IMG/VR virus record: IMGVR_UViG_3300009068_000024
Span: 1-64,000 of that record
Strand: one strand, 5' to 3'
Length of the DNA stretch: 64,000 nucleotides
From: a virus
A program made the position numbers and the translations under genes. This document shows positions 7,811 to 50,649 of this stretch, in pieces (positions within the stretch are counted from its first letter, which is position 1; every line of letters begins with the position of its first letter). Below the pieces are notes generated by a model. That model was not told the DNA's origin and did not search any database. It saw nothing but the letters and a program-made list of their open reading frames with translations.

Positions 7811-7884
7811 CGCGGGGTAGAGCAGTTCGGTAGCTCGCTAGCGTCATAAGCTAGAGGTCGTAGGTTCAAATCCTGCCCCCGCAA
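7811..7884 (+). tRNA. tRNA-Met(CAT), initiator-type body with altered anticodon arm
   Basis: CGCGGGG acceptor with C1:A72 mismatch, AGCAGTTCGGTAGCTC D arm, CAT anticodon, GGTTCAAATCC T arm; CCA not encoded. Confidence 0.93.
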
Positions 7885-7910
7885 CGCAGTAACGACAATA
7901 GGAGAATGAC

Positions 7911-8052: not shown

Positions 8053-8348
8053 GGGGATGACTGGTTTCGACAGTTATTCTGAAGTTGGTGAAGCAAGCAG
8101 AGATGACAGTATCTCTTGAATCTGTCAAAACAATAAATGCTAATACATCTGCATACGCTCTAGCCGCGTGATTTAATCGCAACGCTTAGGCCCCTGACAA
8201 AGCACTAGTTCTAGGTGGGCAGTCAGGTTTTAAATAAATAGAACAAACCCTCTCGTAATACCCTGCAGTACCGTGGCTGGTAAAGCCTAAGCTTGTAGAA
8301 GAACAATTGATCCATAGCTGGACCGGGGTTCGACTCCCCGCATCTCCA
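8053..8348 (+). ncRNA. ssrA: tmRNA, tag peptide ANTSAYALAA
   Basis: 5' GGGGATGA..GGTTTCGAC, 3' T arm CGGGGTTCGACTCCCCG-CATCTCCA; resume context ATAAAT-GCT, tag ORF 8139-8171 ending YALAA-stop. Confidence 0.95.
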
Positions 8349-8406
8349 CGCTTGTAGACAAAGGAGCGTAAAGCGGTCTACCCGTCCTAGGCAACGGAAT
8401 CTCCAA

Positions 8407-10832: not shown

Positions 10833-10848
10833 TCGTACATTTGTTCGA
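10833..10848. promoter_or_regulatory. Near-consensus actinobacterial LexA (SOS) box
   Basis: TCGTAC-ATTT-GTTCGA (1 mismatch to TCGAAC-N4-GTTCGA), upstream of TTGACA...TATACT promoter in a divergent intergenic region. Confidence 0.6.
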
Positions 10849-10948
10849 AGTTTTCATTGGAAGTTGGACTTGACATGGGTTTTCTTTTGTGTGTATACTA
10901 ATAGTGGATTAGGTAAGCCCAGACTAGTTTTAATTCTGTTTTGTCGAA

Positions 10949-11368: not shown

Positions 11369-11524
11369 TTAAAAAGCGTCGACGTCCAGAAGAAAAGAAG
11401 ACAAATATGACAAACAAAGAATACGAAAAGCTTATAAAAGAGATCAGATTTGATCGTCAAATGCAGAAAAAAAGACTGTATGAACAGGCTAAGAGAGCCA
11501 ATGCAAAAGAAAAGAAAAAAGATA

Positions 11525-12442
11525 ATGTTTGAGTATAACCTCCAGTTTACCGGTGGTACTGAGTATATGGCTCTGAATTTCCATGAGAGGGTGGCATTTA
11601 ACGTTCCCAAGCTAAAGGATCATGTGTGCATTATTATCCCCGGAAAAGTTTTGAGTTGGGATAAAGATTTCTATCTAGATAAGAAAATAATCATATGGGC
11701 TCATAATGCTATGTACACTACTAGCATAAAAAAGTGGGCTCTTGAGACTTTTAATAGCCCTGAAATATCTAAGAATATTGTGCGTATTATAGGTATTTCC
11801 GAATTCCATAAAAAAACTCTGATGCAAGACTTTAATAAGGTTCCGGAGGATAGGTTTGTGGTTATCCCTAATGCGTTTGATCCTATAGCTTTTAATCCGC
11901 AAAAATTCGTCGACGTCCAGAAGGTAAAAATAGTACACGCCTCTCATAGTTCTAGAGGTATGGGTCTCTTATTGAAATCTTTAAAGTATGTAGATGAAGA
12001 CTTTGAGTTGAACATCTTTAATGACTACTATCCAGAAGATCTAGAGCACATGTTTGATGATTATCCGGATGATCCTAGGGTCACTTTTTGGGGGAAAACT
12101 CCTAGGAAAACAGTCCATAAGATTATGAGTGAGTCCCATATCCATGCTTATCCATCTACAGTAGAAGAAGCTTTTTGTCTAGTTCAAGTAGAAGCTATGT
12201 CTGCAGGATTACTGTCTGTGTATTCTGGCTATGGTGCTTTATCTGAAGTCTCTTTAGGGTATGGTGTCGAGGTTCCTTATAATGTTTTAAGTGCTACTTC
12301 TTATGCTAAAGCTCTAACTGAGGCTATTCTTACAATTAAGAATGGTCAACATAGTTTTGGTGATCAGAGCACCACTGTCAATGAGAAATACTCCTGGGAT
12401 GTTTTTGTAGAGAATTGGAAAGATTTAGAGAAGAACCTCTAA
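11525..12442 (+). CDS. Glycosyltransferase, GT-B/GT4 (group 1)
   Basis: ISEFHK, VIPNA, SSRGM, HAYPS..EEAFCL..VEAMSAG (EX7E) motifs. Confidence 0.85.
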   Translation: MFEYNLQFTGGTEYMALNFHERVAFNVPKLKDHVCIIIPGKVLSWDKDFYLDKKIIIWAHNAMYTTSIKKWALETFNSPEISKNIVRIIGISEFHKKTLMQDFNKVPEDRFVVIPNAFDPIAFNPQKFVDVQKVKIVHASHSSRGMGLLLKSLKYVDEDFELNIFNDYYPEDLEHMFDDYPDDPRVTFWGKTPRKTVHKIMSESHIHAYPSTVEEAFCLVQVEAMSAGLLSVYSGYGALSEVSLGYGVEVPYNVLSATSYAKALTEAILTIKNGQHSFGDQSTTVNEKYSWDVFVENWKDLEKNL

Positions 12443-19392: not shown

Positions 19393-22263
19393 TTACTTTC
19401 TTCTACTTGTTCTACTTGATGAACCGCCTGAACTGGCGGTAGCTAGAGCTGCTGCTTGGGCAATTTGTCCAACAACAAGGGTGGTTACAACAAGGTTTTG
19501 AGCCTTTTTACGGGCTTTAGGTGAAATATCGGCTCCAACGTTGCCAACTAAGTTCAAAACGTTAGCAATGGCTACTGCAGCCTGTCCAACACCCGGAATA
19601 TTAGCTAGAGCTTCGTCAACAACTATGTCATCTTGCTCTGCTGCAAGGTAAAGGGCGTCTAGGGCTTGTTCGTACTCTGCTGAGCCTTCTGTGGCTGTTT
19701 CAAAGGTTTCTAAAGCGGCTTCTACAAGCAAAACGGCCTGTTCTGGGCTAAGTTCTGTTGGGTCAATTTGAGATAGATCTATTTCTTGTAGATTGCTTGC
19801 GTCTAGGTTCGTTGGAACTTCTGCTGAGCCCTGTGGGGTGTTGAAGATGTTGGTGGCTTCATTGATGATGTCTGGGATTGTGGAAGTGGTAGCCTGGGCA
19901 ACTTCCAATGAAGACTCGAATGAGGCTGATGCGTTGTCGGTGGTGGTTTGGGCTTCTTTCGCTGCAGTTGATGCTTCTTTTGATGTGATGTCAGCTTGGG
20001 TTGAGTTTGCTGCAGCTAGATCTGCGTCAACTTGAGCTTGGTCTTCGTTGGAAGTTGCAGAGCTTAGCAATCCTGTTTGTGTTTCTAGTTCTTGCTGGGC
20101 TTGAGCTTGGGTGGAGGATGCTTCTTCTAAAGCTGTCTGTGCTTGTTCGTTGGAAGTTTGGACGTCTTGACTTTTTCTGCTTTCTGTGTTATAAGCATCT
20201 TGAGCTGCCTGAAGCTGGGAGTTAGCTGTGCGTAAATTCTGATCTGCTTCGTTGGAAGTTGAGATGGCAGCTTTCTGGCTCCTGTCGGCCTCATCAAAGG
20301 CTTGTTGTGCATCTTGAGTTGCAGAGTGGGCTTCGTTTGAAGTTACCTGGTCCTGGTTGAATGCGTTTTGATAGACGTCCAGATTTGCAGAAAGGGTGTT
20401 TAAGGTGGTAGCAGTATCTATGACTTGGTAGTAAGCAGTTGTAGAGTTTTGGGCTGCTACCTGTTGGTCTGCTTGTGCGATCTGCCAGTCTTCCTCTGCT
20501 TGCTGGTTAGCAAGAACGGTTGCGTCGTAATAGATTTGTGCGTTCTGTAGAGCAGGGAGTAGAGCAGGGTCGTGGATTAGTGGGTGGACTTGTCCAGGGA
20601 CTACCTCTGTGGTGTAGTAGGTTTCGTAGTCCCATACAGTTTGTTCAACGTAGGTAGTTGTAGTGGTAGATGTTGTACCTAGGTAGGATGGCGGAACTAG
20701 AACATAGCCTGTCTGTGGGGTGTAGTAATAAAGCCAGACGTTAGCTCCGCCACCATTCTCGTAATAGTAGAGGGTTATGGTGTGGGTGGAGCCACCTTCA
20801 AAATAAACTGGTGCAGAGGTAGAACCGCCTCCACCTTTGTCTCGCCAGTCGCTGATGATTTGAACTCCGTCGATTTGGAGAATAGTTCCGTCATCTGCTG
20901 GTGAGTAGAACTGGTAGTTGCCGGAGGTTGGAAATGAGATGTTTCCCGTGAAACGTACAATGACATCTTCGCTTCTACCTGAGTTAAGAACCTGTCCTGA
21001 ACCCCAGTTGAAGTTGATGTCTGGAACTATGGTTGTGTAGATAGGTCGCTCTAATGAAGATGGGAGTGGTGGAGCATTGTTATAGCCTTGGCGATTAAAT
21101 ACGTCAGCGATTAGGCCGCCTGTAAGGGTTGTGGTTGTAACTGGAACAATGGTGGTGGTTGGAACTAAGCGTTCGTGCTCTTGTTCATAAGTAAGTGGAG
21201 TCCACGTTGGGTCAGGAATTAGGTTGTTGTCGTAGTTCCATTGTGCTTGGTTGAGTTGATCTTGAGCTGCCTCTAAGTTAGAACGAGTGATATTTACTAC
21301 ATCCTGTGCATATAGGTAGTCGTTGTAAACGGTGGTGTAGATATCTAATGTTTGATTGTAATTAGCAAGAACTTGGTTGTAAGTAGCTCTAGCTGCGTCA
21401 ACTTCTGATTGCTTCGTTTGAAGTTCTACGGTAGCTGCAGCTAGATCTTCCTGTGCCTGTGCTTCGTTTGAAGTTGCAGATGAGAGCTTTTGTTCTGCTT
21501 GTGCTTTCTGTGCTTGAGCATTTGAAAGTGCTTGTTGTGCTTGGGCGAGTGTTGATGCTGATTCGATGGCGTTTGTTTGACGTTCGTTTAAAGTTTGTAG
21601 CGCCTGAGCTGTGATGGAGTTCTGCTGCGTCAATGCTTCCGTCGAGTTCGTTAGAAGTTGTTGGGCCTGGAGTACACCCGCATTTGCGTTGTCTAGCTGA
21701 GTCTGGGCTTGAGCTACGGCGGCCTTCTGAACTTCTAATTTCTGTTTTGTGGCTTCGTGGGAAGTTTGAGAGGAGGTGAAAATCTTTCTCTTATCCTGTG
21801 CGTCTTTGTCTGCAAGAGTTTGTGTTTTTAGGGCGTAGGTAAGAGCTGTTTTTGCTTTGTTATAAGTGTCTAGGGCTGACTCAAGGTTAGAAACGTCAGT
21901 TTTCAGAGTTTGAATAGCTGTTTGAGCTTTTTTAATGGCTGTTTGGAGCTCTGGAGAATCATTTGTAGGCTGTTTTTCAAGAAGTGTGTTGAGTTGCGCT
22001 TGGTAGTCTGCTAGAGTAGACTTTAAAGTATTAAGATCTTCAACTGAAGGAGTTAGAGATGATTGTAACCGTTGACTTAGATAGTTTTTGGGTTGGTTTA
22101 GTAGTTGGTTGGATCTCACTGATTGTTGTGAGCTCGATTGCGTCTGTACTGGTAAACCGAAAGAAGAAGTAGCTAAAGCTGACTCTGCATAGCAGATCGG
22201 TAAGCCTGAAAGGAGTGTCGCAATTATGATTTGCGGCACTTTTTTTGATTTATTGCGTTTCAT
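19393..22263 (-). CDS. Secreted/surface coiled-coil protein with central PA14 carbohydrate-binding domain
   Basis: N-terminal signal-like MKRNKSKK-hydrophobic-ALA; Ala/Gln coiled coils; INFNWG.G...RFTG.I....G.Y.F...ADDG..L.IDG...YYENGGGA PA14 motifs. Confidence 0.8.
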   Translation of the reverse strand: MKRNKSKKVPQIIIATLLSGLPICYAESALATSSFGLPVQTQSSSQQSVRSNQLLNQPKNYLSQRLQSSLTPSVEDLNTLKSTLADYQAQLNTLLEKQPTNDSPELQTAIKKAQTAIQTLKTDVSNLESALDTYNKAKTALTYALKTQTLADKDAQDKRKIFTSSQTSHEATKQKLEVQKAAVAQAQTQLDNANAGVLQAQQLLTNSTEALTQQNSITAQALQTLNERQTNAIESASTLAQAQQALSNAQAQKAQAEQKLSSATSNEAQAQEDLAAATVELQTKQSEVDAARATYNQVLANYNQTLDIYTTVYNDYLYAQDVVNITRSNLEAAQDQLNQAQWNYDNNLIPDPTWTPLTYEQEHERLVPTTTIVPVTTTTLTGGLIADVFNRQGYNNAPPLPSSLERPIYTTIVPDINFNWGSGQVLNSGRSEDVIVRFTGNISFPTSGNYQFYSPADDGTILQIDGVQIISDWRDKGGGGSTSAPVYFEGGSTHTITLYYYENGGGANVWLYYYTPQTGYVLVPPSYLGTTSTTTTTYVEQTVWDYETYYTTEVVPGQVHPLIHDPALLPALQNAQIYYDATVLANQQAEEDWQIAQADQQVAAQNSTTAYYQVIDTATTLNTLSANLDVYQNAFNQDQVTSNEAHSATQDAQQAFDEADRSQKAAISTSNEADQNLRTANSQLQAAQDAYNTESRKSQDVQTSNEQAQTALEEASSTQAQAQQELETQTGLLSSATSNEDQAQVDADLAAANSTQADITSKEASTAAKEAQTTTDNASASFESSLEVAQATTSTIPDIINEATNIFNTPQGSAEVPTNLDASNLQEIDLSQIDPTELSPEQAVLLVEAALETFETATEGSAEYEQALDALYLAAEQDDIVVDEALANIPGVGQAAVAIANVLNLVGNVGADISPKARKKAQNLVVTTLVVGQIAQAAALATASSGGSSSRTSRRK

Positions 22264-22333
22264 ATGAGATATCTCTCTATAGAGGTGTATCTCTCCCAAA
22301 TCTATTTTACCGCAAAATAGATTTTATGACCTT

Positions 22334-22744
22334 TTAATTGAAGTTGTCGGGAATCCGTGCTGACCACTCTTCAATGGTCATTTCTCTTTGTTTTGCAATT
22401 GTTCCCTGTGCGAATCCAACTAAGAACCAGTGGAAAACTCCAAAAAATACGTTATAAAAGCCAATTAGGATATAAAGCTCGAAAGAAGTAAAAATGAAGC
22501 AAAACGTCAAAAGTATCGCTGATATCAAAAATGAGAAAATAGGCCAAATGTACGATTTTGTCCAATACCAGATCATTACGGGCCAAGCGGCTGCGCTCAA
22601 AATTATCGAAATTATGATGTCTGGCGGGTATTCGTCGCCTTTATATGTGGAGAAGATCCAAGCTCTTCCGGAGGATTTTTTGTGCAATTTTTTGTACAAA
22701 AGTACTTCAGAATCGGTTAAAACTGGCAGTTCACGGTGGCTCAT
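22334..22744 (-). CDS. Membrane protein
   Basis: Three hydrophobic segments; likely start MSHRE. Confidence 0.5.
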   Translation of the reverse strand: MSHRELPVLTDSEVLLYKKLHKKSSGRAWIFSTYKGDEYPPDIIISIILSAAAWPVMIWYWTKSYIWPIFSFLISAILLTFCFIFTSFELYILIGFYNVFFGVFHWFLVGFAQGTIAKQREMTIEEWSARIPDNFN

Positions 22745-22783
22745 CAGGGATCCTTTCTGGGGGTCTTGTGTACAATCTGTAAA

Positions 22784-22890
22784 AGATACTATCAGGTTTT
22801 TTGAAAAAATATGTAAAAAAGTCAATAGTATCTATGTTAGAGATACTATCGGAAAAAACAAAAGTTTTTGTAAAAAAGTTGATAGTATAA
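22784..22890. repeat. AT-rich duplicated unit with GATACTATC direct and inverted repeats at a strand switch
   Basis: AGATACTATC at 22784 and 22841, inverted copies at 22824 and 22881, TGTAAAAAAGT twice. Confidence 0.7.
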
Positions 22891-23048
22891 CTAATCCAAT
22901 ATACACTTTATGGATTATTGCAACTATATTTTCCCTTAATGCGGAATTTTTTCTCTATACGCGTAGTAAAAAAAGGTTGAAATAAACCAATAAATGGGTT
23001 TTTAGTTGTGTTATAGTTGTTTTGTAAGGTATCATTTTTAATTATCGA

Positions 23049-23498
23049 TTGGAGATAAAATTGGAAGAAAATAAGGATGCAATGAGCTTTTTCGATTTCT
23101 CGGAAGAAGAAGCTTTACAAGTTGCAGAAGAAGAAGTTATTCGAACTAGAGAACGTGATGGACGGATCTGTATCTGTGGACATCCAAATACCAGACACGC
23201 AACTTATGCTGATGTAGTGTCTTGTAACCCGACTAGGATGGCTTGCGATTGTAAGCAAATTCGTCTAGTTTTGGAAGTATCTGATACAAGACTGTTTTTG
23301 AGAAAAACTAATGGATCAGGAACTTCACACGCTTTGAGCAAATCTATGTCTAAGGCAAAATCTCTTGGAGTAGAGGTAAAGTGGCTGATCGACCCTAAAT
23401 GCGACAGATGTAATATAGTGAAGCCAGTTAGTCCAGTTGCAATCTCTCAAAATGGAAGACACGGATATAACGCATTTCTCTGTGTTGACTGCCGATAA
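23049..23498 (+). CDS. Cys-rich hypothetical protein
   Basis: CICGH...H..C...C.C and CDRC/CVDC motifs. Confidence 0.65.
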   Translation: MEIKLEENKDAMSFFDFSEEEALQVAEEEVIRTRERDGRICICGHPNTRHATYADVVSCNPTRMACDCKQIRLVLEVSDTRLFLRKTNGSGTSHALSKSMSKAKSLGVEVKWLIDPKCDRCNIVKPVSPVAISQNGRHGYNAFLCVDCR

Positions 23499-23522
23499 GA
23501 TAACCGATAGGATAAATACACA

Positions 23523-24008
23523 ATGACAATAGATAAACCGATAGTTCAAACCTACGCTGAGTTCAGATACACAAAACAAGGCTCCATCCTTGAGATCAAA
23601 TATCTTGATGAAGCATTAGTGATTGTTAGAGACACTATCTACGAAAACATAGGCGTTCGAGAAGATGTGAGTGGTAGAGCTACCTACTCGATCAGTAGCA
23701 AAGGAGTCTATCTCAAAGTTTGGATTGAGCAGTATATGAATACAATCAATGAGTTCAATGCCAATGAAATTATTCAGCAAATTATGGAAAACATAATCAA
23801 AGCTGGAATTGAGAATATAGAGTTGGAAAGTGTCTTTGAGTACGAAAACCTAAATGGTGAGATACTTATCACCTGCCCTAAATGTACAGGCACCGGAATA
23901 ATACATAGAGTAGATACGGAAGATTGCCCCCAATGCGAGGGTTGGGGTATAACCTTCTCCAACGATCCAAAACTTAAAATCGTTCCCTTAGTTGTGAAAG
24001 GCTCGTAA
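23523..24008 (+). CDS. Hypothetical protein with DnaJ-type CxxCxGxG zinc finger
   Basis: CPKCTGTG and CPQCEGWG. Confidence 0.65.
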   Translation: MTIDKPIVQTYAEFRYTKQGSILEIKYLDEALVIVRDTIYENIGVREDVSGRATYSISSKGVYLKVWIEQYMNTINEFNANEIIQQIMENIIKAGIENIELESVFEYENLNGEILITCPKCTGTGIIHRVDTEDCPQCEGWGITFSNDPKLKIVPLVVKGS

Positions 24009-24502
24009 TGGAGTATATAGTTTTAGAAATATCAGATATCGAGCTAGAAGTTATACCAATGCACGAACTTCCGGGACTCAAGGTTCTCCGTGTTTTAAGT
24101 TCTCCCCCGGATATGCAAAGACTAAAAATGTCAGCTGACTTACTTAGACTGGCTTTAAGAAATCCTGAAGATTGGAATGGGATTGTCAAGTTTCTTTCAA
24201 TGGGAGAACTTATGAAAATTATTGACCAATGGATGGAAAAAAGCCAAGAAGATTCGAATCGGAAATCTGAGGAAGAAGAATATTACAATGACCTTGTCAG
24301 AGAAGAACAGGAGTTTGAGGATGACCTAGACTTCGAACAAAAAGCTATGGAAGATTATGAAGATATAGATTCGGAGTATGAAGTTCCAGAACTTACCCCC
24401 GAAATCTTGTACGACGCATTCGTTGAGTATCTTTCAGAATACAAAGATCCAACTGAAATAATTAGTCCAGAGGAATATGATGAAGGCGAAGAATCCGAAT
24501 AG
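24008..24502 (+). CDS. Acidic hypothetical protein
   Basis: Coupled TAATG start; D/E-rich C-terminal half. Confidence 0.6.
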   Translation: MEYIVLEISDIELEVIPMHELPGLKVLRVLSSPPDMQRLKMSADLLRLALRNPEDWNGIVKFLSMGELMKIIDQWMEKSQEDSNRKSEEEEYYNDLVREEQEFEDDLDFEQKAMEDYEDIDSEYEVPELTPEILYDAFVEYLSEYKDPTEIISPEEYDEGEESE

Positions 24503-24633
24503 ACCAATGTGTGGTTTTTGCGCCACAGGTCATCACGAAAACTGTAAAACCGAAATCAAGTATTACGACAACATTTGGTACTGTGATTGCACGAAGTGTC
24601 ATCCGGACAAAAAAGAAGAAGTAGAGGAAACTA

Positions 24634-24879
24634 ATGAGTCTTAGTGAACCGCTAAGAGATTCTGCTGGAAGATGGGTCGGCACTCCTCATAGGGGAGTGG
24701 ATTTACCTAAAAGCTGGAGTCCGGGAATGTCCGATGAAGAACTAACCACCATTTGGGGATTCAATTCCGATTTGAGGGAACAGCGTAAATTAAAACTTCA
24801 AGCAGATAGAAATGCTAGGTTAGAAAAGACTCAGGAATGTTGGGGTGAAGTATGCAACTGCTCACACCGAAAGAAGTAG
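24634..24879 (+). CDS. Hypothetical protein
   Basis: GAGG RBS; RDSAGRW motif. Confidence 0.55.
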   Translation: MSLSEPLRDSAGRWVGTPHRGVDLPKSWSPGMSDEELTTIWGFNSDLREQRKLKLQADRNARLEKTQECWGEVCNCSHRKK

Positions 24880-25289
24880 CCAAAGAACTCTTCGTCACAG
24901 TTGGTATGGTTCAATATTGGATTCGGAAAGGTCGCCTCAAGAAGTATCCAACTTCCAACGGATATAACTATTTGGTCGATCTGGAAGAAGCTAAGTTTGC
25001 TTCCAAGTGGAAAGAGAATATTTTAAAAATTAATCCTGATTTGATAACAAGACAAGAAGCATCTGAAATCTTATTTCTAACAGAAAGATCTGTTTCGTAC
25101 CACATTTCCGTTGGACATCTGAAAAGGTATTATGTTTTGGGTGATGATAGACACTATTTACTTAATAAAAACGAAGTCATTGAGCTTTTATATAGCGAGC
25201 CTTATTACAAGAACAAAGACAGAAACGAGAAACTTCGTCAACTGGCACTTAATCAGAAAAAAGACAGAAAAGGTAAGTTTTGTAAATAG
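24852..25289 (+). CDS. Tandem excisionase/MerR-like HTH DNA-binding protein
   Basis: LLTPKEVAKEL.VT...V..WIRKGRL and LITRQEASEIL.LT.RSV...I..G.L repeats. Confidence 0.75.
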   Translation: MQLLTPKEVAKELFVTVGMVQYWIRKGRLKKYPTSNGYNYLVDLEEAKFASKWKENILKINPDLITRQEASEILFLTERSVSYHISVGHLKRYYVLGDDRHYLLNKNEVIELLYSEPYYKNKDRNEKLRQLALNQKKDRKGKFCK

Positions 25290-25580
25290 TTTTATTTAAA
25301 AAGTAAAACTTTCAAACTTTACTTAGTCCCCCCTAGAAGCCTTATAGTTTCAGGGGGATTTTTTTGTTTCTAAACCACAAAAAGTTGTCGTCTCACACCT
25401 CACGCCTAAAAAACTTTTCAAACTACCCCCATAATGAGAACTATCAACCTTGTATAAAAAAGGTTGCGGGAAGGCTCCCCTTACTAGCGTTTACAATATC
25501 GAACGCAAAAGAGGTCGGGTGGAGTCACGAGCCTCTCCCCGGTTGACTCCATCCGATCCAAACTTCGAACGAAGGAACAT

Positions 25581-26594
25581 ATGACAGAAGATAACTCAGA
25601 TCCAGGATCCTCATCCTCAACTTCTAATGAACGTCCATTGGAAGTTAAGATCGATCCTTTCGAAGCTCCTCCCGTAGAAGCTCCTATTATAGAAATCAAT
25701 GAACCTTTAAACATACGTCCAGACCTTTCCGAAATCGGAATCGAAGAAGTTGACCGCGGCGTTTGTGATGACACATTCGAAAACCGTCAACTCCTACGTC
25801 GAGCAAAGTTCAACTGGATTCCAGTGTACGCATCCAACGGAGTTCCAACGGGACTCATCCAAGCAATCTCAACCGAGATGGCAACCGAGAAACGTATCCT
25901 CTCCCTTGCCGAGAAAAAACCCATCCTCACAGATCCAACGAACAAAAACTCAGATTATCTAACGGGCCTCGATCTTCTAGCTGAAGAAGCGTCCGACTAC
26001 ATCTGCCCACCTTGGGTCATCGGCGCAACTCGTGCTTATATAAAAGAACAATCCGCGCCCCCGGTCTCATCAAAACGTAAACCGGCCGCACTTCCAACGA
26101 GATGTTCCAACGTAAAGGATGACGGGATCCGCTGCCAGCTCTGGTCTTCAGGACGTTTACAAGATGACGGTCTTTGCCGAATTCACCTGAGAAGCGTAAA
26201 ACACAGGCCAGGCGATGACATCGAACGAGCTCGTCAGAAGTTATTCCAGGCAGCGCCGTACGCCGTCGACGTTCTCGAAGATATGATGAGTAACGCAGAG
26301 TCTGAGCCAGTGAAGCTAAAAGCTGCGACTGAAATTCTTGACCGAGCCGGAGTCCGCGGCGGGATGGAGATCGACACAAACGTTTCGTTGGAAGTTCGTC
26401 CGGCCGCAAGCATCATTGCTGAACGTCTAAACAGACTTGCAACAAACGCAATCGACGCAGCCGCCAGGCTCAGTGAGGCAGGCATCCTGGTAACTTCCAA
26501 CGAAGTTGAACCGACCCAAGAAACTGCAGCGCACACTGCCGGATCTACAACTTCTAACGAAGACATTGTTGACGCAGAGATCCAGGAGGACTAA
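25581..26594 (+). CDS. Probable terminase small subunit
   Basis: RC...K.DG.RC...LC.IH Zn motif followed by AAPYAVDVL...ESEPVKLKAATEILDRAG, a pattern I associate with actinophage TerS-like proteins. Confidence 0.5.
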   Translation: MTEDNSDPGSSSSTSNERPLEVKIDPFEAPPVEAPIIEINEPLNIRPDLSEIGIEEVDRGVCDDTFENRQLLRRAKFNWIPVYASNGVPTGLIQAISTEMATEKRILSLAEKKPILTDPTNKNSDYLTGLDLLAEEASDYICPPWVIGATRAYIKEQSAPPVSSKRKPAALPTRCSNVKDDGIRCQLWSSGRLQDDGLCRIHLRSVKHRPGDDIERARQKLFQAAPYAVDVLEDMMSNAESEPVKLKAATEILDRAGVRGGMEIDTNVSLEVRPAASIIAERLNRLATNAIDAAARLSEAGILVTSNEVEPTQETAAHTAGSTTSNEDIVDAEIQED

Positions 26595-26599
26595 CCGAC

Positions 26600-26806
26600 A
26601 TGCATAGCTCGGATCCGCAACTTCTAACGAACGCACGTGAACTCGCATCCCAGCTTGCTGCAGACGTTAGCCAGGCGTCCACTAGACTGGAACATATAAG
26701 ACTTACAGCCAGAGCTAACGAAGCAGCGAATTTGCTGCAGGCCCTGGAGAAACTTCTAACGACCGGAGAGATTGATGACGAGAGCGAACCGCCAAGCGTT
26801 TCTTAA
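26600..26806 (+). CDS. Hypothetical protein
   Basis: GGAGG RBS; helical 68 aa. Confidence 0.65.
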   Translation: MHSSDPQLLTNARELASQLAADVSQASTRLEHIRLTARANEAANLLQALEKLLTTGEIDDESEPPSVS

Positions 26807-27557
26807 TGAAGCCGAAAAGCACATTGGGTATCAAGCACGTATGAATAAAGGTTCAACGTACGGAGAACTAGTTGGTCACCCAGACAGGGATTGGAACGGC
26901 AGCTTCATCGACGTGATCGCACGAACCGTTGGTTTGAACTTGCCATCGCATGTGCACACAGCTGCAGCTCTGAGCTACTACTTCCAACGAGGGATGACGC
27001 ACGTTCGACCAAAACCAGGCGACATCGTCTTCTTCAGTTTTTCTCACGGAGACCCTCAGGGTATGCCTCACGTAGGAATTGTCACTGACGTCGAGCACTT
27101 TTCAAAGCATGGGATGTTTCAGACGATCGAAGCTCAAACTTCCAACGGAACTCCAAAAGGCAGCGCAGCTAACGACGGCGTCTACAGACGAAACCGTTAT
27201 GTTTACGAAGTACTCGCCTTCGCCAGGCCAAACTTCAAACGAACATTTCCGAAGAAGCAGGATGCTGCAGCTCATCCGGATCCAGGTAAACTTCCAACGA
27301 AGCCGTCCGTTAAAAGTTCCATCATTATTCCAGGACTCAAACACCCTTGCATTATTACCGTCCAACTTGCACTTGGCATGACCGTCGGTCTGCGCGGAGC
27401 TAAGCGAGGAGAGTGGGACCACAAGACGGCTGCAGCCTTCGCTAACTTCCAACGAAGAATCGGATATATCGGAAGCAGTGTCAACGGGATTCCTGACCTC
27501 CCGAGTCTCGAACGTCTGTCTCTAGAAACCGGAAACTTTTTTATAACGATTCCATAA
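26772..27557 (+). CDS. CHAP-like amidase domain + peptidoglycan-binding domain
   Basis: A..HIGY, W(N)GSF, PKPGDIVFF, HVGIV, TIE..T; C-terminal G.W...T.AA...FQRR. Confidence 0.75.
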   Translation: MMTRANRQAFLNEAEKHIGYQARMNKGSTYGELVGHPDRDWNGSFIDVIARTVGLNLPSHVHTAAALSYYFQRGMTHVRPKPGDIVFFSFSHGDPQGMPHVGIVTDVEHFSKHGMFQTIEAQTSNGTPKGSAANDGVYRRNRYVYEVLAFARPNFKRTFPKKQDAAAHPDPGKLPTKPSVKSSIIIPGLKHPCIITVQLALGMTVGLRGAKRGEWDHKTAAAFANFQRRIGYIGSSVNGIPDLPSLERLSLETGNFFITIP

Positions 27558-27597
27558 CGGGGTTGCGTTCTTTTATATAACGTGCTAACTTTCTTAT

Positions 27598-28353
27598 ATG
27601 GAAGAAAATTTGAAATGCACGCGGTGCCTAGTATGGAAACCGACGTCCACTATATTCACTGAACTAGGCGAGCTAACTGCTTGCATAGACTGCAAAGATA
27701 CCTGCAGAGACTGCTCAACCGAGACTCCAGAAGAACTGCTCGAACACGGATTGTGCCTAAGTTGTTGCCAAGAAATGGACGAAGAGGCCGAAGAGAATGG
27801 ATACTACGATGAGTAAGCAATGCTACTCCTGCCCCGACCTAATATCCAACATCGGGACAGCGTCAATGTTTATAAGCGGAAATAAACAGTATTATCAATG
27901 CGCTAACTGTATGGAAGGTTCAAACTGTTTCACGTGTGAGGGATGTGGAGACGGACTAGCCAGCGAATGCGTTGATTATGTTCCTAGCCGATACAGAGAG
28001 TGGTGGTGCATTAGTTGCGCCGAAGACCACGAAAGTGTTAGGCTTGATTTTGAAAACAATTGGATTTTCAAGGAGGAAAACTAATGCGTATAGGCACCAA
28101 CAAACAGTGGGAACTAAGCGTTTGCGATTCCTGCGCATATTTCATCATTGACCATTTAGGCGAATGGATAGCATTTCAAAGCAAATCGCCACACTATTGC
28201 ATTGACTATCTAGAAGACGCAAACACTAGAGTCAGAGAACCCCACAAACCGTCAAAGTTGTACGACGATGACTGGATAAAAAAACTGTGGACGTCTGCAA
28301 ATAGAACAGTAGCAATAGCTTTTCGACATTGGTATATGACAGAACTCGACTAA
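27598..28353 (+). CDS. Three small Cys-rich hypothetical genes (27598..27816, ~27809..28084, ~28084..28353)
   Basis: Overlapping start/stop codons, CxxC pairs; terminator at ~28354-28386. Confidence 0.6.
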
Positions 28354-28641
28354 AAATTCCCCGCCTAAACAGCGGGGATTTTTTTTGCCAAACCGGGAAT
28401 AAATCTGAAAGTAGCTTTCCAGGCAAAAACTTCCAACGAACGTCCATACGAAGTTTTCTACCGAATGCGTAATTTTTTTCTCATCCAGGCAAAACTTCCA
28501 ACGAACCTACGTGCGAAGTTCAGAAGGGATCCGGATCCGGCAGCGGGCGCAACTTTCAACGAGCTTCATTGGAAGTTGTAGTTTTCACAGTCGATGACAA
28601 AATCTTCTTGACTTTTAGAACTAAACCGATAACATAGAAAT

Positions 28642-30641: not shown

Positions 30642-30742
30642 AAACTTTTCCAAAAAACTTTTATAGAAACTTGACAAACTTCTAACAAAAGACTTAGACT
30701 TTCTAAGTAAGCCGAAATCAACCCTGAAAGGACACAAACAAA

Positions 30743-34778: not shown

Positions 34779-35579
34779 ATGCCAAATTGGGTCTATAACA
34801 CGCTAACTATTTCAGGCAAGCCTGACGAGATAAAAGCCTTTACGGAAAAAGCTGATAAGGCAATACCGACAAGTAATAACAATGGCAAGACTATTGAGTT
34901 AGGGGAAACTGACGGACTTTCTTTCTGGAACTTCATAGCACCACCCGAGGAAAAATACGATCTCTATTTCGCCACTTCTGACGGAACAGCAGACCAAACT
35001 TGGGGCTGGTATGGCTGGAACAGCGAGAATTGGGGAACTAAGTGGGACGCTAACGATACGAGTATGTCCCCGTCCCCTGACGAGATAACCGAACATACCG
35101 GTAGTGTGATTTATTATTTCTCTACTGCTTGGAGTTATCCTGAACCTGTTTTTAGAGCTATGGCAGAACAGCACCCGAACTTACACTTTCACTTGCGTTC
35201 CGTTGAGGAACAAGGCTGGGGTGCTGAACTATCGGGAGCTGACGGAAAAATCTACACCGATAAGACCTGGGACATACCGAGTAGTCATCAGGAGTGGGTT
35301 GATACCGACCAAGAGGGAAGTTGCTCTTGCCAAAATGACGATGAGGAAAATTGGTATGATGACTGCCCGAGAGATGATCAAGAGTTTATTGTTGTTATTC
35401 AGAAGTCTTACCGAGTAAGAACCAACACAGCAGAAAACGCTTACGAGCTTGCTATGGAACAGGGGAACGACCCTGACGAGCAAATGGAAGTTCTTGACGA
35501 AACGATAGCTTGGGTTCTTGACGATCAGAGAGTTAGGCAGTATCCTCTTTTGAGCAATAAAGTTCCTGAATTGGAATAA
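34779..35579 (+). CDS. DUF1281/YubB ferredoxin-like (Api92-like) protein
   Basis: MPNWVYN.L.I.G, WY.W...NWGTKWD, F.TAWS.P motifs. Confidence 0.85.
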   Translation: MPNWVYNTLTISGKPDEIKAFTEKADKAIPTSNNNGKTIELGETDGLSFWNFIAPPEEKYDLYFATSDGTADQTWGWYGWNSENWGTKWDANDTSMSPSPDEITEHTGSVIYYFSTAWSYPEPVFRAMAEQHPNLHFHLRSVEEQGWGAELSGADGKIYTDKTWDIPSSHQEWVDTDQEGSCSCQNDDEENWYDDCPRDDQEFIVVIQKSYRVRTNTAENAYELAMEQGNDPDEQMEVLDETIAWVLDDQRVRQYPLLSNKVPELE

Positions 35580-38861: not shown

Positions 38862-41782
38862 AAGTGGATTACGAAGTATCAAGAATAGCGATCTGGAAAG
38901 TAGAGAACGCTAAGACAAAGTTAGAACTTACCTATTCTGCCGAGTATGGAGCAGAGATAAAAGCAAGCTTGACTTACCGAACACTAGGGGGAGAGTGGAT
39001 AAAAACTATCAGGTATTACAACCGAGCCGAGTGTCTAATGGATTTCGCTACCCTAACCAATAATAAAAAACTGATCAGGGTAATAGAGAGAACAGAGCAG
39101 TATCAAAGCTATTTAGAGAATAGTTAGACACGCCAAAAAATAAATGAAAATAAACTTGACTTAGATTAGACAAAAGACTAAGTTAGAAGTATTGGAAGTT
39201 CCAATAGCCAAAATCGGCACAGAACTAAGGAAGTAAATAAATGGAAAATCAAGAACCACAAGAACCACAAGAAGTAAAAATCACAAGCAAGAAAGCAAAA
39301 GAAGCTTACGCTTTACTAAAAGCCATAAAGGAACAAATGGCAGACTTGGAAAAGCAGAAAGCACAGGCTAACGAAATCTTGGCACAGGCTCTAAATGGTG
39401 CCAAGCGTGGAGTTGTTGCTGGACAGGGATCGTTTATTATGGCAAGTGGTAAAAACACTAGTTTTGACCGAACCCTGATGAAAGAGAAGTTTCCGTTGGC
39501 GTTCCAAGAGTGCCTAAGAACTACGGAATACGAATACATCAAGCTTGTCTAACAAGAAGTAGTTATCCCCTAATAAACCACACCGAGAGTTTGGATTAGG
39601 GGATTTACTTTTTACCGAGAGAAGTGGTAATGTAGAGATACCACCGAAAATGAAAGTAGAAAAATGACCAAGTATGTAAAACACCTAAACAATGATGAAC
39701 TACTACAACGCCTAGCAGACGAGTTAGTTCAGGCACACAAGGAAACAGGCATAGACCTAGGCTATTGGGAAACAGCCAGAGAAGTTGTAGAACGCTTTTA
39801 CAGCGTGGAAGTAAAACTAACTATCAGGAAAGCAAAGAAAAAATGACCGAACAGGAAAAGCCGAAAGGCGATTTTAGTGATCCAAAAAGTTTCTATTTCA
39901 ATGACTACCTAAGCAACCACATAGGACACAAGCTTGAAGTTGTTGAGTATTGTTGTGGAGTGTGTGGAAAGACCACCGACTTTATGCTCCGTTGTTTCCA
40001 AGATGACATAGATGATACTTGTTTCAACGACCCTGCCGGTATTGCTAGGGAATGGGTGAAACCACATTGCGAGTGTAATCACAGCCCTTGGACAAAAAAT
40101 GACTAAGTGTAAGTGTTGTAATGGCGAAAATGTATTCACTTGCGAGAGTTGTGGAAACGGATTAGCAAGTGAAAGAAAAGCTTTTACCGATAGTTCAGGG
40201 ATAGAGTTTGACCCGACTACCGAACACGCTATTTATGTTTGTGTAGATTGTAAAAAAGAACTTGACAAAAAATAATCAAGTTTAGTAAAGTGGAACTACC
40301 ACCGAAAAACAAGGAGTAAAAAGTGGAACTAAATGAAACCGAACAAAAGACCATAAAGCGTATTTATGATTTCTACGCTACTAAGGAAATCAACGCTGAT
40401 GAAGCTTTACAAAAGTTAGAAATGCTGATCAACGAAAATGAAATCTGTCAGGGTTGTCTTGCCGAGATAGACGAGAATAATCCACTCATAGACGCTGAAC
40501 GCTATGCTGTAAGCGACAAAATCGGTTATTGCGATAATTGCTATGACCCGACACCAGACTAAAAACAAGCTTGGCAGTTAGTCCCCCCTAACACTACTGC
40601 CAACGAGCAAGGGTTTTTCTCATTTCTCCCTTGCTCCACACCTAAGCAAGTGTATAAAAGGCTTATTTTTATTTAGGGAACACACCGAGAAATAATCTTG
40701 ACTAATCTTAGGCAGTTGTGGTTAGATTAGTTAGCACCAAAAAAAATAAACCACCGAAAAAGGAGAAACAAAAATGGGCGATAGAGCAACTATCCACATC
40801 ACAAGCCAGAGCTTTAGTTCACCGATAGAACTTTATGGGCATTGGTCAGGAACAGATAACGCCAAAGCAGTTGCCAAGGTATTAGAGAGAACCGACAGAA
40901 TTGGAGATGCCAATTATCTAACAGCACAGGTATTCTATGAATACGCTGTAATTCTAGGTGGTTATACAGGACACCTAAGTTTTGGCATTAGAGCAACTAA
41001 CGCTGAACCTAGCGACACTTGGGACGATAATCCGGTCGTTATCCTAAATGCCGATACAGGTTCAGTTGAGTATGACGGACAGACTTACACAGCTAATCAG
41101 TTTGCGTTAGCGTATGCCGATAAGGTAAGTTAGAACTACACCGATAAGGGTGGTAATCCATAAGGGTTATCACCTTTATCACTAACAAGGGAAAGAAAAA
41201 TGGACGAGCAATTAGAACAACTAAAAGAAAAATTACTAGATCTAAAATCTAGACGAGCAGGGTTGTTATCTTTATTGGAAGGTATTACCGAGCAAGTAAA
41301 AACAACACCAAATAAAGACCTAGCGTTTCTAGACAACTTGCTAGCACAGCTAGAACAGGCAACAATAAAATCTAATCAACTAGGCGAGATAATTGCCGAA
41401 ACTAGATTAGAAATTGCTAAGTTTAGAAAAGAGTTTGGCTTAGACTAGCCAAGCTGGTAAAGTTAGAACACAACCAAAAGAGGAGAACCAAATGAAAACA
41501 CTTGCCGAATTCAAAAGAGTATTGGCTCAACCAGACACCACACTAACTATCATCAAATACCTAAACACCAAAACAGGTGCCGAGATGAACCACAAGTTTC
41601 TAAATCAGGTTAGAACTATCGGGAAACTACAAACCAATAGCGTTGCCCTGAAAGACAAGGCAGGGAAACTATCGTGGTTAGATCTTGATAAAGCTAGTAA
41701 GTGGAGTTTCACCGAGAACATAGCAACTTTCGCTGATGAGTATGTAATTCTGGTTTATCGGGTTGAGAAACACGCTGAATAA
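38858..41782 (+). CDS. Run of small hypothetical early genes (38858, 39241, 39664, 39843, 40099, 40323, 40774, 41200, 41492)
   Basis: Most have their own promoter or AGGA/GGAG RBS; several are Cys-rich. Confidence 0.65.
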
Positions 41783-49251: not shown

Positions 49252-50649
49252 ATGGCTAAAAGTATCATGGAGCAGATCGCAATGCTTCCACCTGAAGAAC
49301 AGGCTAAAGTGCTATCCGGTATGGATGCAGACTCACTCATGTGGGACTGGTCAGTCTGGGGTAGGCCAGAGCAGCAAGCACCTGAAGGTGACTGGAACAT
49401 CTGGGCTTATATAGCCGGTCGTGGTGCTGGTAAGACTAGAACTGCTGCTGAGTGGGTTCGTGAAGAAGCTAAGTACACAACTACAGGGCAGAGACGCTTT
49501 GCTCTGGTTGCTCGTACTGCAGCTGACGTACGTGACGTTATCGTTGAAGGTGAGTCTGGCATTATGAATGTCACTCCACCTAGCGAGAGGCCATTGTATG
49601 AGCCATCTAAGCGAAGACTAACTTGGCCTAATGGCAATACGGCTACTTGTTTCACTGCTGATGAACCTGACTCACTTCGTGGTCCTCAGTTTACTCATTC
49701 CTGGGGTGACGAGATTGCAGCCTGGAGACAGACTCCTGATGCTGCAGGTATGACTGCCTTTGACAACCTTCGTGTTGGTACTCGTCTTGGATCTAATCCT
49801 AAGATCATGGTCACTACTACACCTAAGCGTGTACCTTTGCTTTATAAGCTTATCGAAGAAGCTAAGACCGGTCGTGTTGTGATTACTCGTGGTTCTACTC
49901 TTGACAATTCAGGTAACCTATCCGGTGCTTATCTTGATGCTATTACAGGAGTCTATGCGGGTACTCGTTTAGCTCAGCAGGAAATCTATGGAGAGATGCT
50001 TGACGATGTCGAAGGTGCACTTTGGACTTCTGAAGTTATTGATCTAGGTAGACAGTCCGGTATGCCTCTTGGAACTCCACTTAGAGTTATTGGAGTAGAC
50101 CCTAGCGTTGCTGAGAATCCTAGAGATGAATGCGGCATTGTTGTATGTGCCTCTACTTCTGAAAGAGATCTTTATAAGCGTCAGGCTTGGGTGCTTGAGG
50201 ACGCTAGCGTTCTTGGCTCTCCAACTGTTTGGGCTGAGAAAGTCGTTGAGATGGCTCGTAAGTGGGGCTGCCCTGTTGTTGCTGAGGTAAACCAAGGTGG
50301 AGCATTAGTGAAGAATGCTATTCACACTATCGACCCGAACATTGTAGTTCTTGAGGTTCATAGTAAATACGGTAAGGCTCTTCGAGCTGAGCCTGTTACT
50401 CTTGCCTACGAGCAAGGTCGTGTCCATCACGTTGGCTTCTTGGCAGACTTAGAGTCTCAAATGTATTCTTGGATTCCAGGCGAAGGCAAGTCGCCAGACA
50501 GAGTTGACGCATTGGTCCATGCTATGACTGCTCTACTTATCAAACCTCCTTCAGGCTTTACAGGTGGAAAGATTACTGCCCGTTCTATGGGAAGCCGAAA
50601 GATAGACACAGGCAGCAAGACTAGCCGATCAATCTTTAGGCTTAGATAA
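49252..50649 (+). CDS. terL: Terminase large subunit
   Basis: AGRGAGKTR Walker A, LRGPQF..WGDE, TTTP, nuclease IGVDP, AEVNQGG, SPDRVDA. Confidence 0.95.
   Translation: MAKSIMEQIAMLPPEEQAKVLSGMDADSLMWDWSVWGRPEQQAPEGDWNIWAYIAGRGAGKTRTAAEWVREEAKYTTTGQRRFALVARTAADVRDVIVEGESGIMNVTPPSERPLYEPSKRRLTWPNGNTATCFTADEPDSLRGPQFTHSWGDEIAAWRQTPDAAGMTAFDNLRVGTRLGSNPKIMVTTTPKRVPLLYKLIEEAKTGRVVITRGSTLDNSGNLSGAYLDAITGVYAGTRLAQQEIYGEMLDDVEGALWTSEVIDLGRQSGMPLGTPLRVIGVDPSVAENPRDECGIVVCASTSERDLYKRQAWVLEDASVLGSPTVWAEKVVEMARKWGCPVVAEVNQGGALVKNAIHTIDPNIVVLEVHSKYGKALRAEPVTLAYEQGRVHHVGFLADLESQMYSWIPGEGKSPDRVDALVHAMTALLIKPPSGFTGGKITARSMGSRKIDTGSKTSRSIFRLR

Follow-up and report, generated by a model that had tools for sequence, protein, structure and literature searches.

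A polar array of a 13-base word in two divergent operons of an uncultured freshwater phage: possible stoperator-like sites

The genome of a large uncultured freshwater phage (IMG/VR record IMGVR_UViG_3300009068_000024, a complete record of 137,503 bp with a 103-bp terminal overlap) carries a dense array of a 13-base word, AACTTYNAACGAA, followed by S (C or G). We analysed bases 1-64000 of this record, called the window here, which hold 18 exact copies of the word against 0.07 expected. The array lies in and around genes for a PA14-domain surface protein, a tandem winged-helix protein, a protein that resembles small terminases (TerS) and an endolysin, and its copies may be polar sites of a phage DNA-binding regulator. 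A megablast search of the 19-29 kb region against deposited phages gave zero matches, the 13-mer was not found in the literature searched, and papers on phages of freshwater actinobacteria yielded nothing of relevance.

Anatomy of the array

The array consists of two mirror arms that flank a motif-free central operon (Table 1). It extends over 8.8 kb, with a 3.2-kb gap between the arms, and no copy with 0-1 mismatch is found at 21767-24949. Within the PA14 protein, whose N-terminus looks like a secretion or lipoprotein signal, the motif copies fall in the Q/A/S/T-rich coiled-coil-like stretches, where they replace other residues. The right arm begins inside the winged-helix gene; after it come the hairpin and T-run that close the central operon, and then the promoter region of the following operon with its structured leader. 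Copy 25561, which is the first in the right arm to lie beyond the winged-helix gene, comes directly after this leader and overlaps the ribosome-binding site of the TerS-like gene. At the far end of the arm, in the non-coding cluster, copy 28551 stands tail-to-tail with a true reverse copy at 28565, and copies 28428 and 28493 stand tail-to-tail with degenerate reverse copies (2 and 1 mismatches, respectively). The copy number of this cluster seems to be strain-variable, since a contig of run X3 jumps from 28417 to 28484, skipping 66 bp between two cluster copies, and the related loci L010 and L011 have fewer units. Contig 'joints' at other motif copies (e.g. 20159 to 20330, 27153 to 28599) were rejected as real deletions, and we read them instead as contigs of relatives that the aligner mis-joined at the repeated word.

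Table 1. Features of the array, its surroundings and its outlying copies, in window coordinates (aa, amino acids; †, one mismatch)
Feature	Position	Strand	Remarks
Left arm	19808..21766	-	10 sense copies and 1 antisense, in the 968-aa PA14 gene
Left-arm sense copies	19808†, 20044, 20146, 20248, 20332, 21413, 21463, 21583, 21647, 21754†	-	
Left-arm antisense copy	19900†	+	
PA14-domain gene, 968 aa	19393..22299	-	PA14 E = 2.1e-13; Q/A/S/T-rich coiled-coil-like stretches
Motif-free centre	22826..24949	+	Divergent promoter region and central operon of small genes (23049-24879)
Winged-helix gene, 145 aa	24852..25289	+	Final gene of the central operon; contains copy 24950
G+C hairpin, then T-run	25328..25366	+	Closes the central operon; kept in L010 and L011 (alignment)
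Right arm	24950..28577	+	14 sense and 3 antisense copies, plus two-mismatch copies 26089 and 26979
Right-arm sense copies	24950†, 25561, 25619†, 26492, 26549, 26619, 26751†	+	
Right-arm sense copies, continued	27137†, 27231, 27289, 27444, 28428, 28493, 28551†	+	
Right-arm antisense copies	26384, 27306†, 28565†	-	
Structured leader before the TerS-like gene	25400..25560	+	Conserved
TerS-like gene, 337 aa	25581..26594	+	Copies in N- and C-terminal tail insertions
68-aa-protein gene	26600..26806	+	Two copies, L-L-T frame
CHAP/NlpC-P60 endolysin gene	26772..27557	+	Four sense copies and one antisense
Non-coding cluster	28428..28577	+	Between operon terminator (28358-28378) and promoter-like site (28608-28635); three forward copies
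Outlying tandem pair	10840..10865	-	Both with 1 mismatch; 4 bp away from the -35 of a promoter-like site (TTGACA...TATACT) between divergent genes
Outlying copy	30677..30689	+	1 mismatch; fills the spacer of promoter-like site 30671-30700 (TTGACA-N18-TAGACT)

All 18 exact copies of AACTTNNAACGAA in the whole 137.5-kb genome fall inside 20044-28505 and within 6.7% of its length, and none of 100 shuffles reached 18 (mean 0.07, maximum 1). Allowing one mismatch raises the genome-wide count to 39, and 28 of these copies lie at 19808-28577. A slightly looser pattern, observed 30 times in the array region, averaged 1.5 copies and never exceeded 5 in second-order Markov simulations of that region, and 21 of its 23 exact copies lie within 6.7% of the genome. 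The column profile of the copies reads AACTT(C>T)N AA(C>T)G(A>G)A, then S at +14, and beyond the 13 bases this S is the only information in the flanks; the motif is thus a discrete 13-14-bp word and not a piece of a longer repeat. The word holds AAC twice, at positions 1-3 and 8-10, 7 bp apart. Among the 28 array copies, 24 are sense and 4 antisense, and for the pattern AACTTNNAACGNA the array has 19 exact sense copies against 2 antisense (binomial p = 2.2e-4), or 24 against 6 with up to one mismatch.

These counts agree with the initial annotation of the region, which had described about 25 copies of a polar 13-bp motif whose orientation mostly flips across the strand switch and which is almost absent from the rest of the window; outside the array the window has zero exact copies and six with one mismatch (10840, 10853, 29992, 30677, 52909 and 63238). 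An even distribution over the genome, which the same annotation named as an outcome that would speak against it, was not seen. Its list of 28 positions needed some correction: 26 are copies with 0-1 mismatch (28566 is correctly 28565), two carry two mismatches (26089 and 26979, which read CACTTCCAACGAG and TACTTCCAACGAG, respectively), and the minus-strand copies 19808 and 27306 had been overlooked.

Other words are also frequent in this region. The divergent promoter region in the centre (22780-22900) has its own repeats, (A)GATACTATC and the inverse, which are among the most repeated words in L025 and L040 and are probably the operator of another regulator. GGATCC is dense at 25605-28533, with 6 of the 18 genome sites within 3 kb, and CTGCAG and CCAGG are also frequent beside motif copies.

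Selection on the word and its occurrence in relatives

A search of viral contigs with the 337-aa TerS-like protein yielded 39 loci at 59-90% identity. Fifteen of them (L009-L023) have 3-15 exact copies of the word each, L040 has one exact and six one-mismatch copies, and the other 23 loci have none. Lineages differ in the word at positions 6-7 (CC/CT, TT or TC) and at position 12 (A or G). Syntenic, mirrored confinement of the copies was found in records G001 (19/19 copies in one ~10-kb sector), G002 (15/15), G003 (13/13) and G004 (9/14). All 15 copies of G012 fall in a 24-kb sector centred on its winged-helix genes, and all 12 copies of G011 are on the plus strand, starting 311 bp past the end of its winged-helix match; orientation follows transcription in G001-G003, G011 and G012 as well. 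The complete relatives G008, G009 and G010 have 1, 0 and 0 copies, respectively. When 2.9 million viral contigs were scanned for two copies 40-70 bp apart, 16 stretches were obtained on 13 contigs, all of this phage family: 11 were already-known relatives, and the two new ones encode lysin homologues, one of them together with a homologue of the 337-aa protein. Judged from these contigs, the word pair is private to this phage family, and such restriction argues for a phage-encoded reader over a general host one.

The arrangement of the copies within genes suggests that they are kept for their DNA sequence. The 19 sense copies that lie within four genes of the window are translated in three frames, 11 as T-S-N-E/G, 6 as L-x-T and 2 as N-F-x-R, and four sense copies are non-coding (25561, 28428, 28493 and 28551, the last beside the antisense copy 28565). 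In the N-F-x-R frame position 7, as read from the sequences, is C or A, so that a TAA stop is avoided. A three-way alignment with the DNA of L010 and L011 shows the copies as conserved islands amid diverged, indel-rich linkers. Using codon alignments, we compared identity at third positions that fall on fixed motif positions with identity at other third positions. Motif positions were the more conserved in L010 (69/72 versus 1094/1549), L011 (28/32 versus 364/628), L013 (21/28 versus 232/595), L017 (21/28 versus 245/601) and L018 (19/31 versus 245/609). In the TerS-like protein, the TSNE-coding copies fill segments of the N- and C-terminal tails for which motif-free relatives have no counterpart; some copies were thus placed via added, lineage-specific codons. 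Copies in three frames and outside genes, synonymous conservation and extra codons together support selection on the nucleic acid and not on the protein. The initial annotation had argued the same from copies in all frames and outside genes, and the conservation at synonymous sites that it expected to find in relatives is borne out by these alignments.

Some forward copies have a reverse copy 1-5 bp downstream (25619, 27289/27306 and 28551/28565), an arrangement that looks hairpin-like. From 13 motif-bearing sequences we collected 70 candidate inverted pairs, 16 of which have 0-1 mismatch in both copies; several of these 16 occupy homologous places in related genomes and hence are not independent. 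In the 16 good pairs, with spacers of 1-5 bp, the free position 7 could pair (Watson-Crick or G-U) in 5, which is about chance level. The pair at 25619 has U-G in the window, and its counterpart in G001 has changed without compensation. A hairpin in RNA or single-stranded DNA was rejected on these grounds, i.e. pairing of position 7 in 5/16, varying spacers and no compensatory changes. An Rfam scan of 18-31 kb, at E values up to 1, returned three sub-threshold chance hits only. Because the spacers are variable and compensation is absent, we conclude that each copy is selected as a duplex-DNA sequence and that the stem is not selected.

A few copies outside the array stand at promoter-like sites (Table 1). 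The counterpart of copy 30677 in G001 is an exact copy at the same place, and outside the arrays of G001, G004 and G005, 6 of 8 consensus copies are not within any open reading frame (ORF) of at least 70 aa. The outlying copies appear operator-like, occupying places typical of the operators of regulators.

Two further features were noticed in the motif-free relatives. A gene for Mom-like DNA modification (phrog_1384, E = 1.9e-59) lies in the variable centre of L036 (8758-9387) and of G008-G010, upstream of the TerS-like gene. By tblastn it was found in 3/3 motif-free complete records versus 0/8 motif-bearing ones, and in this sample it is mutually exclusive with the 13-mer array and winged-helix gene. 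The other feature is a polar word, ACGGC[AG]AGC, which occurs in G010 (71499-84259) and G008 (68794-81303) within the lysin gene in several frames, clustered in the non-coding DNA that follows, and again in the early region; ACGGCAAGC is on the plus strand in 18 of 18 cases in G010 and in 11 of 11 in G008. This word may be a second, lineage-specific polar signal. Taken as a positional analogue of the array, it is without a left arm and extends 13 kb into early genes.

Candidate DNA-binding proteins

The winged-helix protein matches Pfam HTH_17 (E = 1.2e-8) and is the sole match to this family in the genome. Its best PHROG is an excisionase family (E = 3.1e-10), and there is a weak match to the small-terminase family phrog_57 (E = 3.4e-4). 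An AlphaFold2 model (9-row alignment, pLDDT 80.9) predicts two tandem winged helices of 55-60 residues each, with the order beta-alpha-alpha-beta-beta-alpha. In Foldseek searches the individual domains matched DNA-bound BldC (probability 1.00, TM 0.63-0.73, 29-30% identity, E = 0.011-0.019), and also RacA and the Xis of mycobacteriophage Pukovnik (TM 0.75); across both domains there was a loose match to TraN of pIP501. The protein has the BldC-family feature of a small winged helix-turn-helix without the coiled-coil or effector domain of MerR. An excisionase role is unlikely, since the genome has no tyrosine integrase and its only resolvase-type gene is one of 218 aa.

Some relatives encode both domains of the protein, and others only one, which aligns with the second. 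A profile of the family found one gene each in G000-G005, and a further search added G011, G012 (two genes) and G013; in G006, G007 and G008-G010 there was none at E values up to 10. The family is present in 9 of 11 motif-bearing records versus 0 of 3 complete motif-free ones. The gene can move, because in G012 it sits 3.4 kb from the TerS-like gene. Other candidate readers, sought by phyletic profile as genes present in motif-bearing records and not in G008-G010, were rejected: ORFs 34779-35579 and 40774-41133 encode acidic proteins without a DNA-binding family, and a basic ORF of 41 aa (~11407-11532) was not convincing.

Two observations concern neighbouring and distant genes. Small proteins rich in Cys, and often in lysine, whose genes lie a short way upstream of the TerS-like gene (24634-24879 in the window), have the peptide R-D-x-x-G-(R/K/N)-(W/F) at their N-termini. 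This peptide recurs at the C-termini of winged-helix proteins (25230-25289) and may be a shared docking peptide. Beyond the window, G000:C1:115199-115639 encodes a resolvase/invertase-type serine recombinase (218-aa frame, E = 1.5e-33), ~1 kb downstream of a 1524-aa ORF (109635-114209), and may be a tail-fibre invertase rather than an integrase.

The initial annotation had also placed a TerS candidate inside the array, and this assignment gains from profile searches. The alignment profile of the 337-aa protein matched the oligomerisation helices of the PaP3 small terminase (7JOQ) with E = 6.9e-4, the single sequence reaching E = 0.15, and it matched a second TerS (6W7T) with E = 0.22. No other TerS candidate was found beside the large terminase gene (49252-50649), whose upstream neighbour is endolysin-like. 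ESM Atlas returned only unnamed viral clusters for the 337-aa protein, and Pfam at E values up to 5 returned nothing. Its predicted structure (22-row alignment) had a pLDDT of 50.4, too poor for use, and a complex prediction with the winged-helix protein scored 0.00, which is evidence neither way.

The leader in front of the TerS-like gene folds better than 200/200 shuffles (z = -4.5) and is present in all 23 aligned relatives, motif-bearing or motif-free. Its core, CTCTCCCC, hardly varies, and in the long-range stem GAGRC/GYCTC one base pair covaries (16 sequences have A-U and 5 have G-C). Both sides of another stem visibly differ between lineages, but this stem is out of register in the alignment.

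Elsewhere in the genome, the most repeated 12-mers are AGGTATTCAAGG-type words, with up to 18 copies, which suggest a long tandem collagen-like coding repeat outside the array. The phage also encodes a tRNA-Met (7811-7885) and a tmRNA (8053-8349) with the tag ANTSAYALAA.

Possible function of the array

Among stoperator, pac and origin or partition functions, the stoperator-like one fits the array best, because asymmetric 13-mers co-oriented with transcription are accompanied by promoter-like outliers and by a linked tandem winged-helix gene. We therefore consider it quite possible, while stopping short of calling it probable, that the copies are polar, stoperator-like sites of a phage DNA-binding regulator, probably the tandem winged-helix protein, which would silence or time two outward-reading operons. 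The 13-mer would be the recognition site of a phage-encoded, sequence-specific double-stranded-DNA-binding protein, and the most likely reader would be the 145-aa tandem BldC/Xis-like protein encoded at 24852-25289. After its synthesis the reader would occupy ~28 asymmetric sites in the pair of operons that are transcribed away from the centre, its targets being the PA14 surface-protein gene on the left and the TerS-like, 68-aa and CHAP lysin genes on the right, and it would also occupy a few promoter sites (30677 and 10840/10853). As nearly all sites face RNA polymerase the same way, they might act as polar roadblocks or silencers that keep lysis, packaging and envelope genes off, the effect being repression rather than activation. 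Replication would multiply the ~30 sites with each genome copy and could thereby titrate the protein, in which case the array might double as a timer.

Known systems offer parallels for such a mechanism. L5-type repressors bind more than 20 asymmetric 13-mers, oriented as transcription runs, and repression is abolished at a reversed site (PMC9283540). BldC binds direct repeats head-to-tail and directionally (PMC5859096), and the Xis/MerR-like Gp36 of D29 represses genes downstream of its direct repeats (PMC12266134). By analogy, the array would work most like Cluster A stoperators. Both the array and the sites of L5 gp71 and the TipsytheTRex repressor (PMC9283540) are asymmetric 13-bp words (13-14 bp here, with 28 copies at 0-1 mismatch), number more than 20 per genome, are oriented with transcription and lie in part at promoters; the reader, here the proposed one, combines two DNA-binding domains in a single polypeptide, and both kinds of phage infect actinobacteria. 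Unlike those of Cluster A, the sites described here are mostly genic, in three frames and sometimes with added codons, are 5-10 times denser and are confined to two operons. The candidate reader is a tandem BldC/Xis-type winged helix and not a helix-turn-helix plus 'stoperator' domain, a distinction made by fold with no gp71-type sequence search. Without a tyrosine integrase the phage is also not evidently temperate, unlike Cluster A phages. BldC/Xis-like regulators, including D29 Gp36, are similar in fold, in that the candidate domains match BldC, RacA and Pukovnik Xis, and the AAC that occurs twice in the 13-mer is an indirect hint of direct repeats such as BldC binds. However, BldC and Gp36 have one domain each and oligomerise at one site or a few in promoter regions. 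In the present case some lineages have two fused domains and others a single one, the sites number ~28 and lie within genes, and the half-sites differ in both spacing and sequence from AATTNNNN(C) and from AGGCGGC-N13-AGGCGGC.

Several points weigh against polar silencing by the winged-helix protein. Cluster A stoperators lie mainly in short intergenic spaces and are spread genome-wide, whereas the array is confined, very dense and mostly genic, with 21 of 23 exact copies of the looser pattern in 6.7% of the genome and few copies at promoter-like sites. The direction of transcription, the direction away from the centre and the identity of the lagging-strand template coincide in every genome seen, so polarity alone cannot single out transcription or separate the readings. 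The fold matches of the candidate reader are weak by E value (0.011-0.08, none at or below 0.001). In L011 (record G006, 31 kb) its gene is cleanly absent between the Cys-rich gene and the terminator, and this locus still has 11 exact copies of the word with 88% identity at motif third positions; the motif-bearing G007 (91 kb) likewise has no winged-helix match. These two records, which are fragments (22% and 53% complete, respectively), weaken the link between gene and motif and are the main evidence against it. The association is in addition inflated by shared ancestry, as the motif-bearing lineages are mostly one clade. Finally, there is no excess of third-position identity in L022 (26/58 versus 639/1241), L023 (12/31 versus 216/597) and L040 (4/13 versus 183/531). 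Since the excess is absent in distant relatives, single sites seem to turn over with distance while the array persists.

The TerS-like gene within the array, with some of the sites inside it, brings packaging to mind. Sites of pac or cos recognition commonly lie in or beside terS (P22, SPP1, lambda cosB), and here copies stand at the ribosome-binding site and at the 5' and 3' ends of the TerS-like gene. The array could then be a packaging-recognition field bound by the TerS-like protein, perhaps with the winged-helix protein as a separate DNA-recognition subunit, that marks or organises the start of packaging. The profile matches to PaP3 TerS and 6W7T, the lack of another TerS candidate adjoining the large terminase and the weak match of the winged-helix protein to phrog_57 agree with this, and lambda gpNu1 binds DNA through a winged helix of the MerR-like kind. 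The pac and cosB regions known so far, however, are single, compact loci, whereas the field here extends over 8.8 kb, is split by the gap into two mirrored arms and reaches into an unrelated surface-protein gene; a classical pac site therefore fits poorly. A packaging role would also not account for the outliers at promoter sites. Motif-free relatives keep a TerS-like protein that is 59-67% identical without an array in or around its gene, and the motif-bearing L040 carries the motif-free type of this protein, so the TerS-like protein is not the specificity determinant. A packaging field is therefore unlikely. We find it equally improbable that the array is a new kind of DNA-organising field, in which fused BldC/Xis-like winged helices would read ~30 one-way sites that evolution has pressed into the genes flanking a control centre; such a field would act as a timer coupled to copy number, would start lysis and packaging at the same time and could pass the segment on to the TerS-like protein.

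Phage P4 has two clusters of iterons, ori and crr, 4.5 kb apart, and the mirrored arms could similarly belong to replication or segregation. The sites would then be origin-organising, partition-like or anchoring, flanking a bidirectional origin near 22.8-23.0 kb on the lagging-strand template, where they might anchor the segment or else serve to load or direct a factor for replication, priming or segregation. The arms mirror a divergent centre in every relative examined, by geometry the motif strand would be the lagging-strand template for forks leaving that centre, and the candidate reader resembles RacA, a MerR-like winged-helix protein that binds many centromere-region sites (PMC12266134). 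We nevertheless regard this as very doubtful: the GC skew does not switch at 23 kb, the repeats found in the centre (GATACTATC) are different ones, beside the array no gene of the replication-initiator or ParB-like type was identified, though no search was aimed at those families, and the copy in the promoter spacer would be left unexplained. An iteron origin in particular fits poorly because, in place of regular tandem repeats, copies are spaced irregularly (13 to >1000 bp, with a loose mode only at 57-58 bp) and most lie within genes. The strong sense bias (19 versus 2) would also be expected of a signal read during or after transcription, either an RNA word, AACUUYNAACGAA, that is bound or cut, or a non-template strand read by an RNA-polymerase-modifying factor in the manner of the RfaH ops element, which is 12 nt long, strand-specific and located within transcribed DNA; the copy at the TerS-like ribosome-binding site, a placement kept in L010, L011 and L021, is consistent with this. 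Such a signal is decidedly unlikely, given that true antisense copies are kept beside forward ones at conserved places (27289/27306, G001 470/488, L011 4963/4978) with no compensatory pairing, for which an RNA reader would not select. Moreover, one copy lies in a promoter spacer, upstream of the start of that promoter, a search of the genome found no NusG-like or AlpA-family gene, and no Rfam family matched. A reading without any phage reader, in which the sites serve as decoys or sinks for a host protein or as targets of a hijacked host regulator, is hardly credible to us. The two motif-bearing records without a winged-helix gene, and the failure of phyletic profiling to give another convincing phage DNA-binding candidate, would allow for it; paired copies, however, are confined to one phage family among the 2.9 million viral contigs, and close relatives that share most genes are without the motif, so a common host factor is not obviously involved. 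Promoters of extracytoplasmic-function (ECF) sigma factors or of a phage RNA polymerase, invertase crossover sites, Chi-like sites and DNA-uptake sequences were set aside by length, density, unconserved flanks, variable pair spacing or clustering.

If the copies are indeed polar, stoperator-like sites, stoperator-type silencing would not be peculiar to temperate mycobacteriophages, and a tandem BldC/Xis-like fold would have reinvented it in large, probably lytic phages of freshwater actinobacteria. The density of the sites would have demanded the rewriting of coding sequence, including the addition of codons in protein tails, and the array would then show, in a clear and testable way, a DNA signal that takes precedence over protein coding. 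Combined, the 13-mer and the 145-aa protein could be used in Actinobacteria as a portable block of transcription that depends on orientation. For the uncultured phages themselves, the array would provide a candidate mechanism for timing their lysis and packaging genes.

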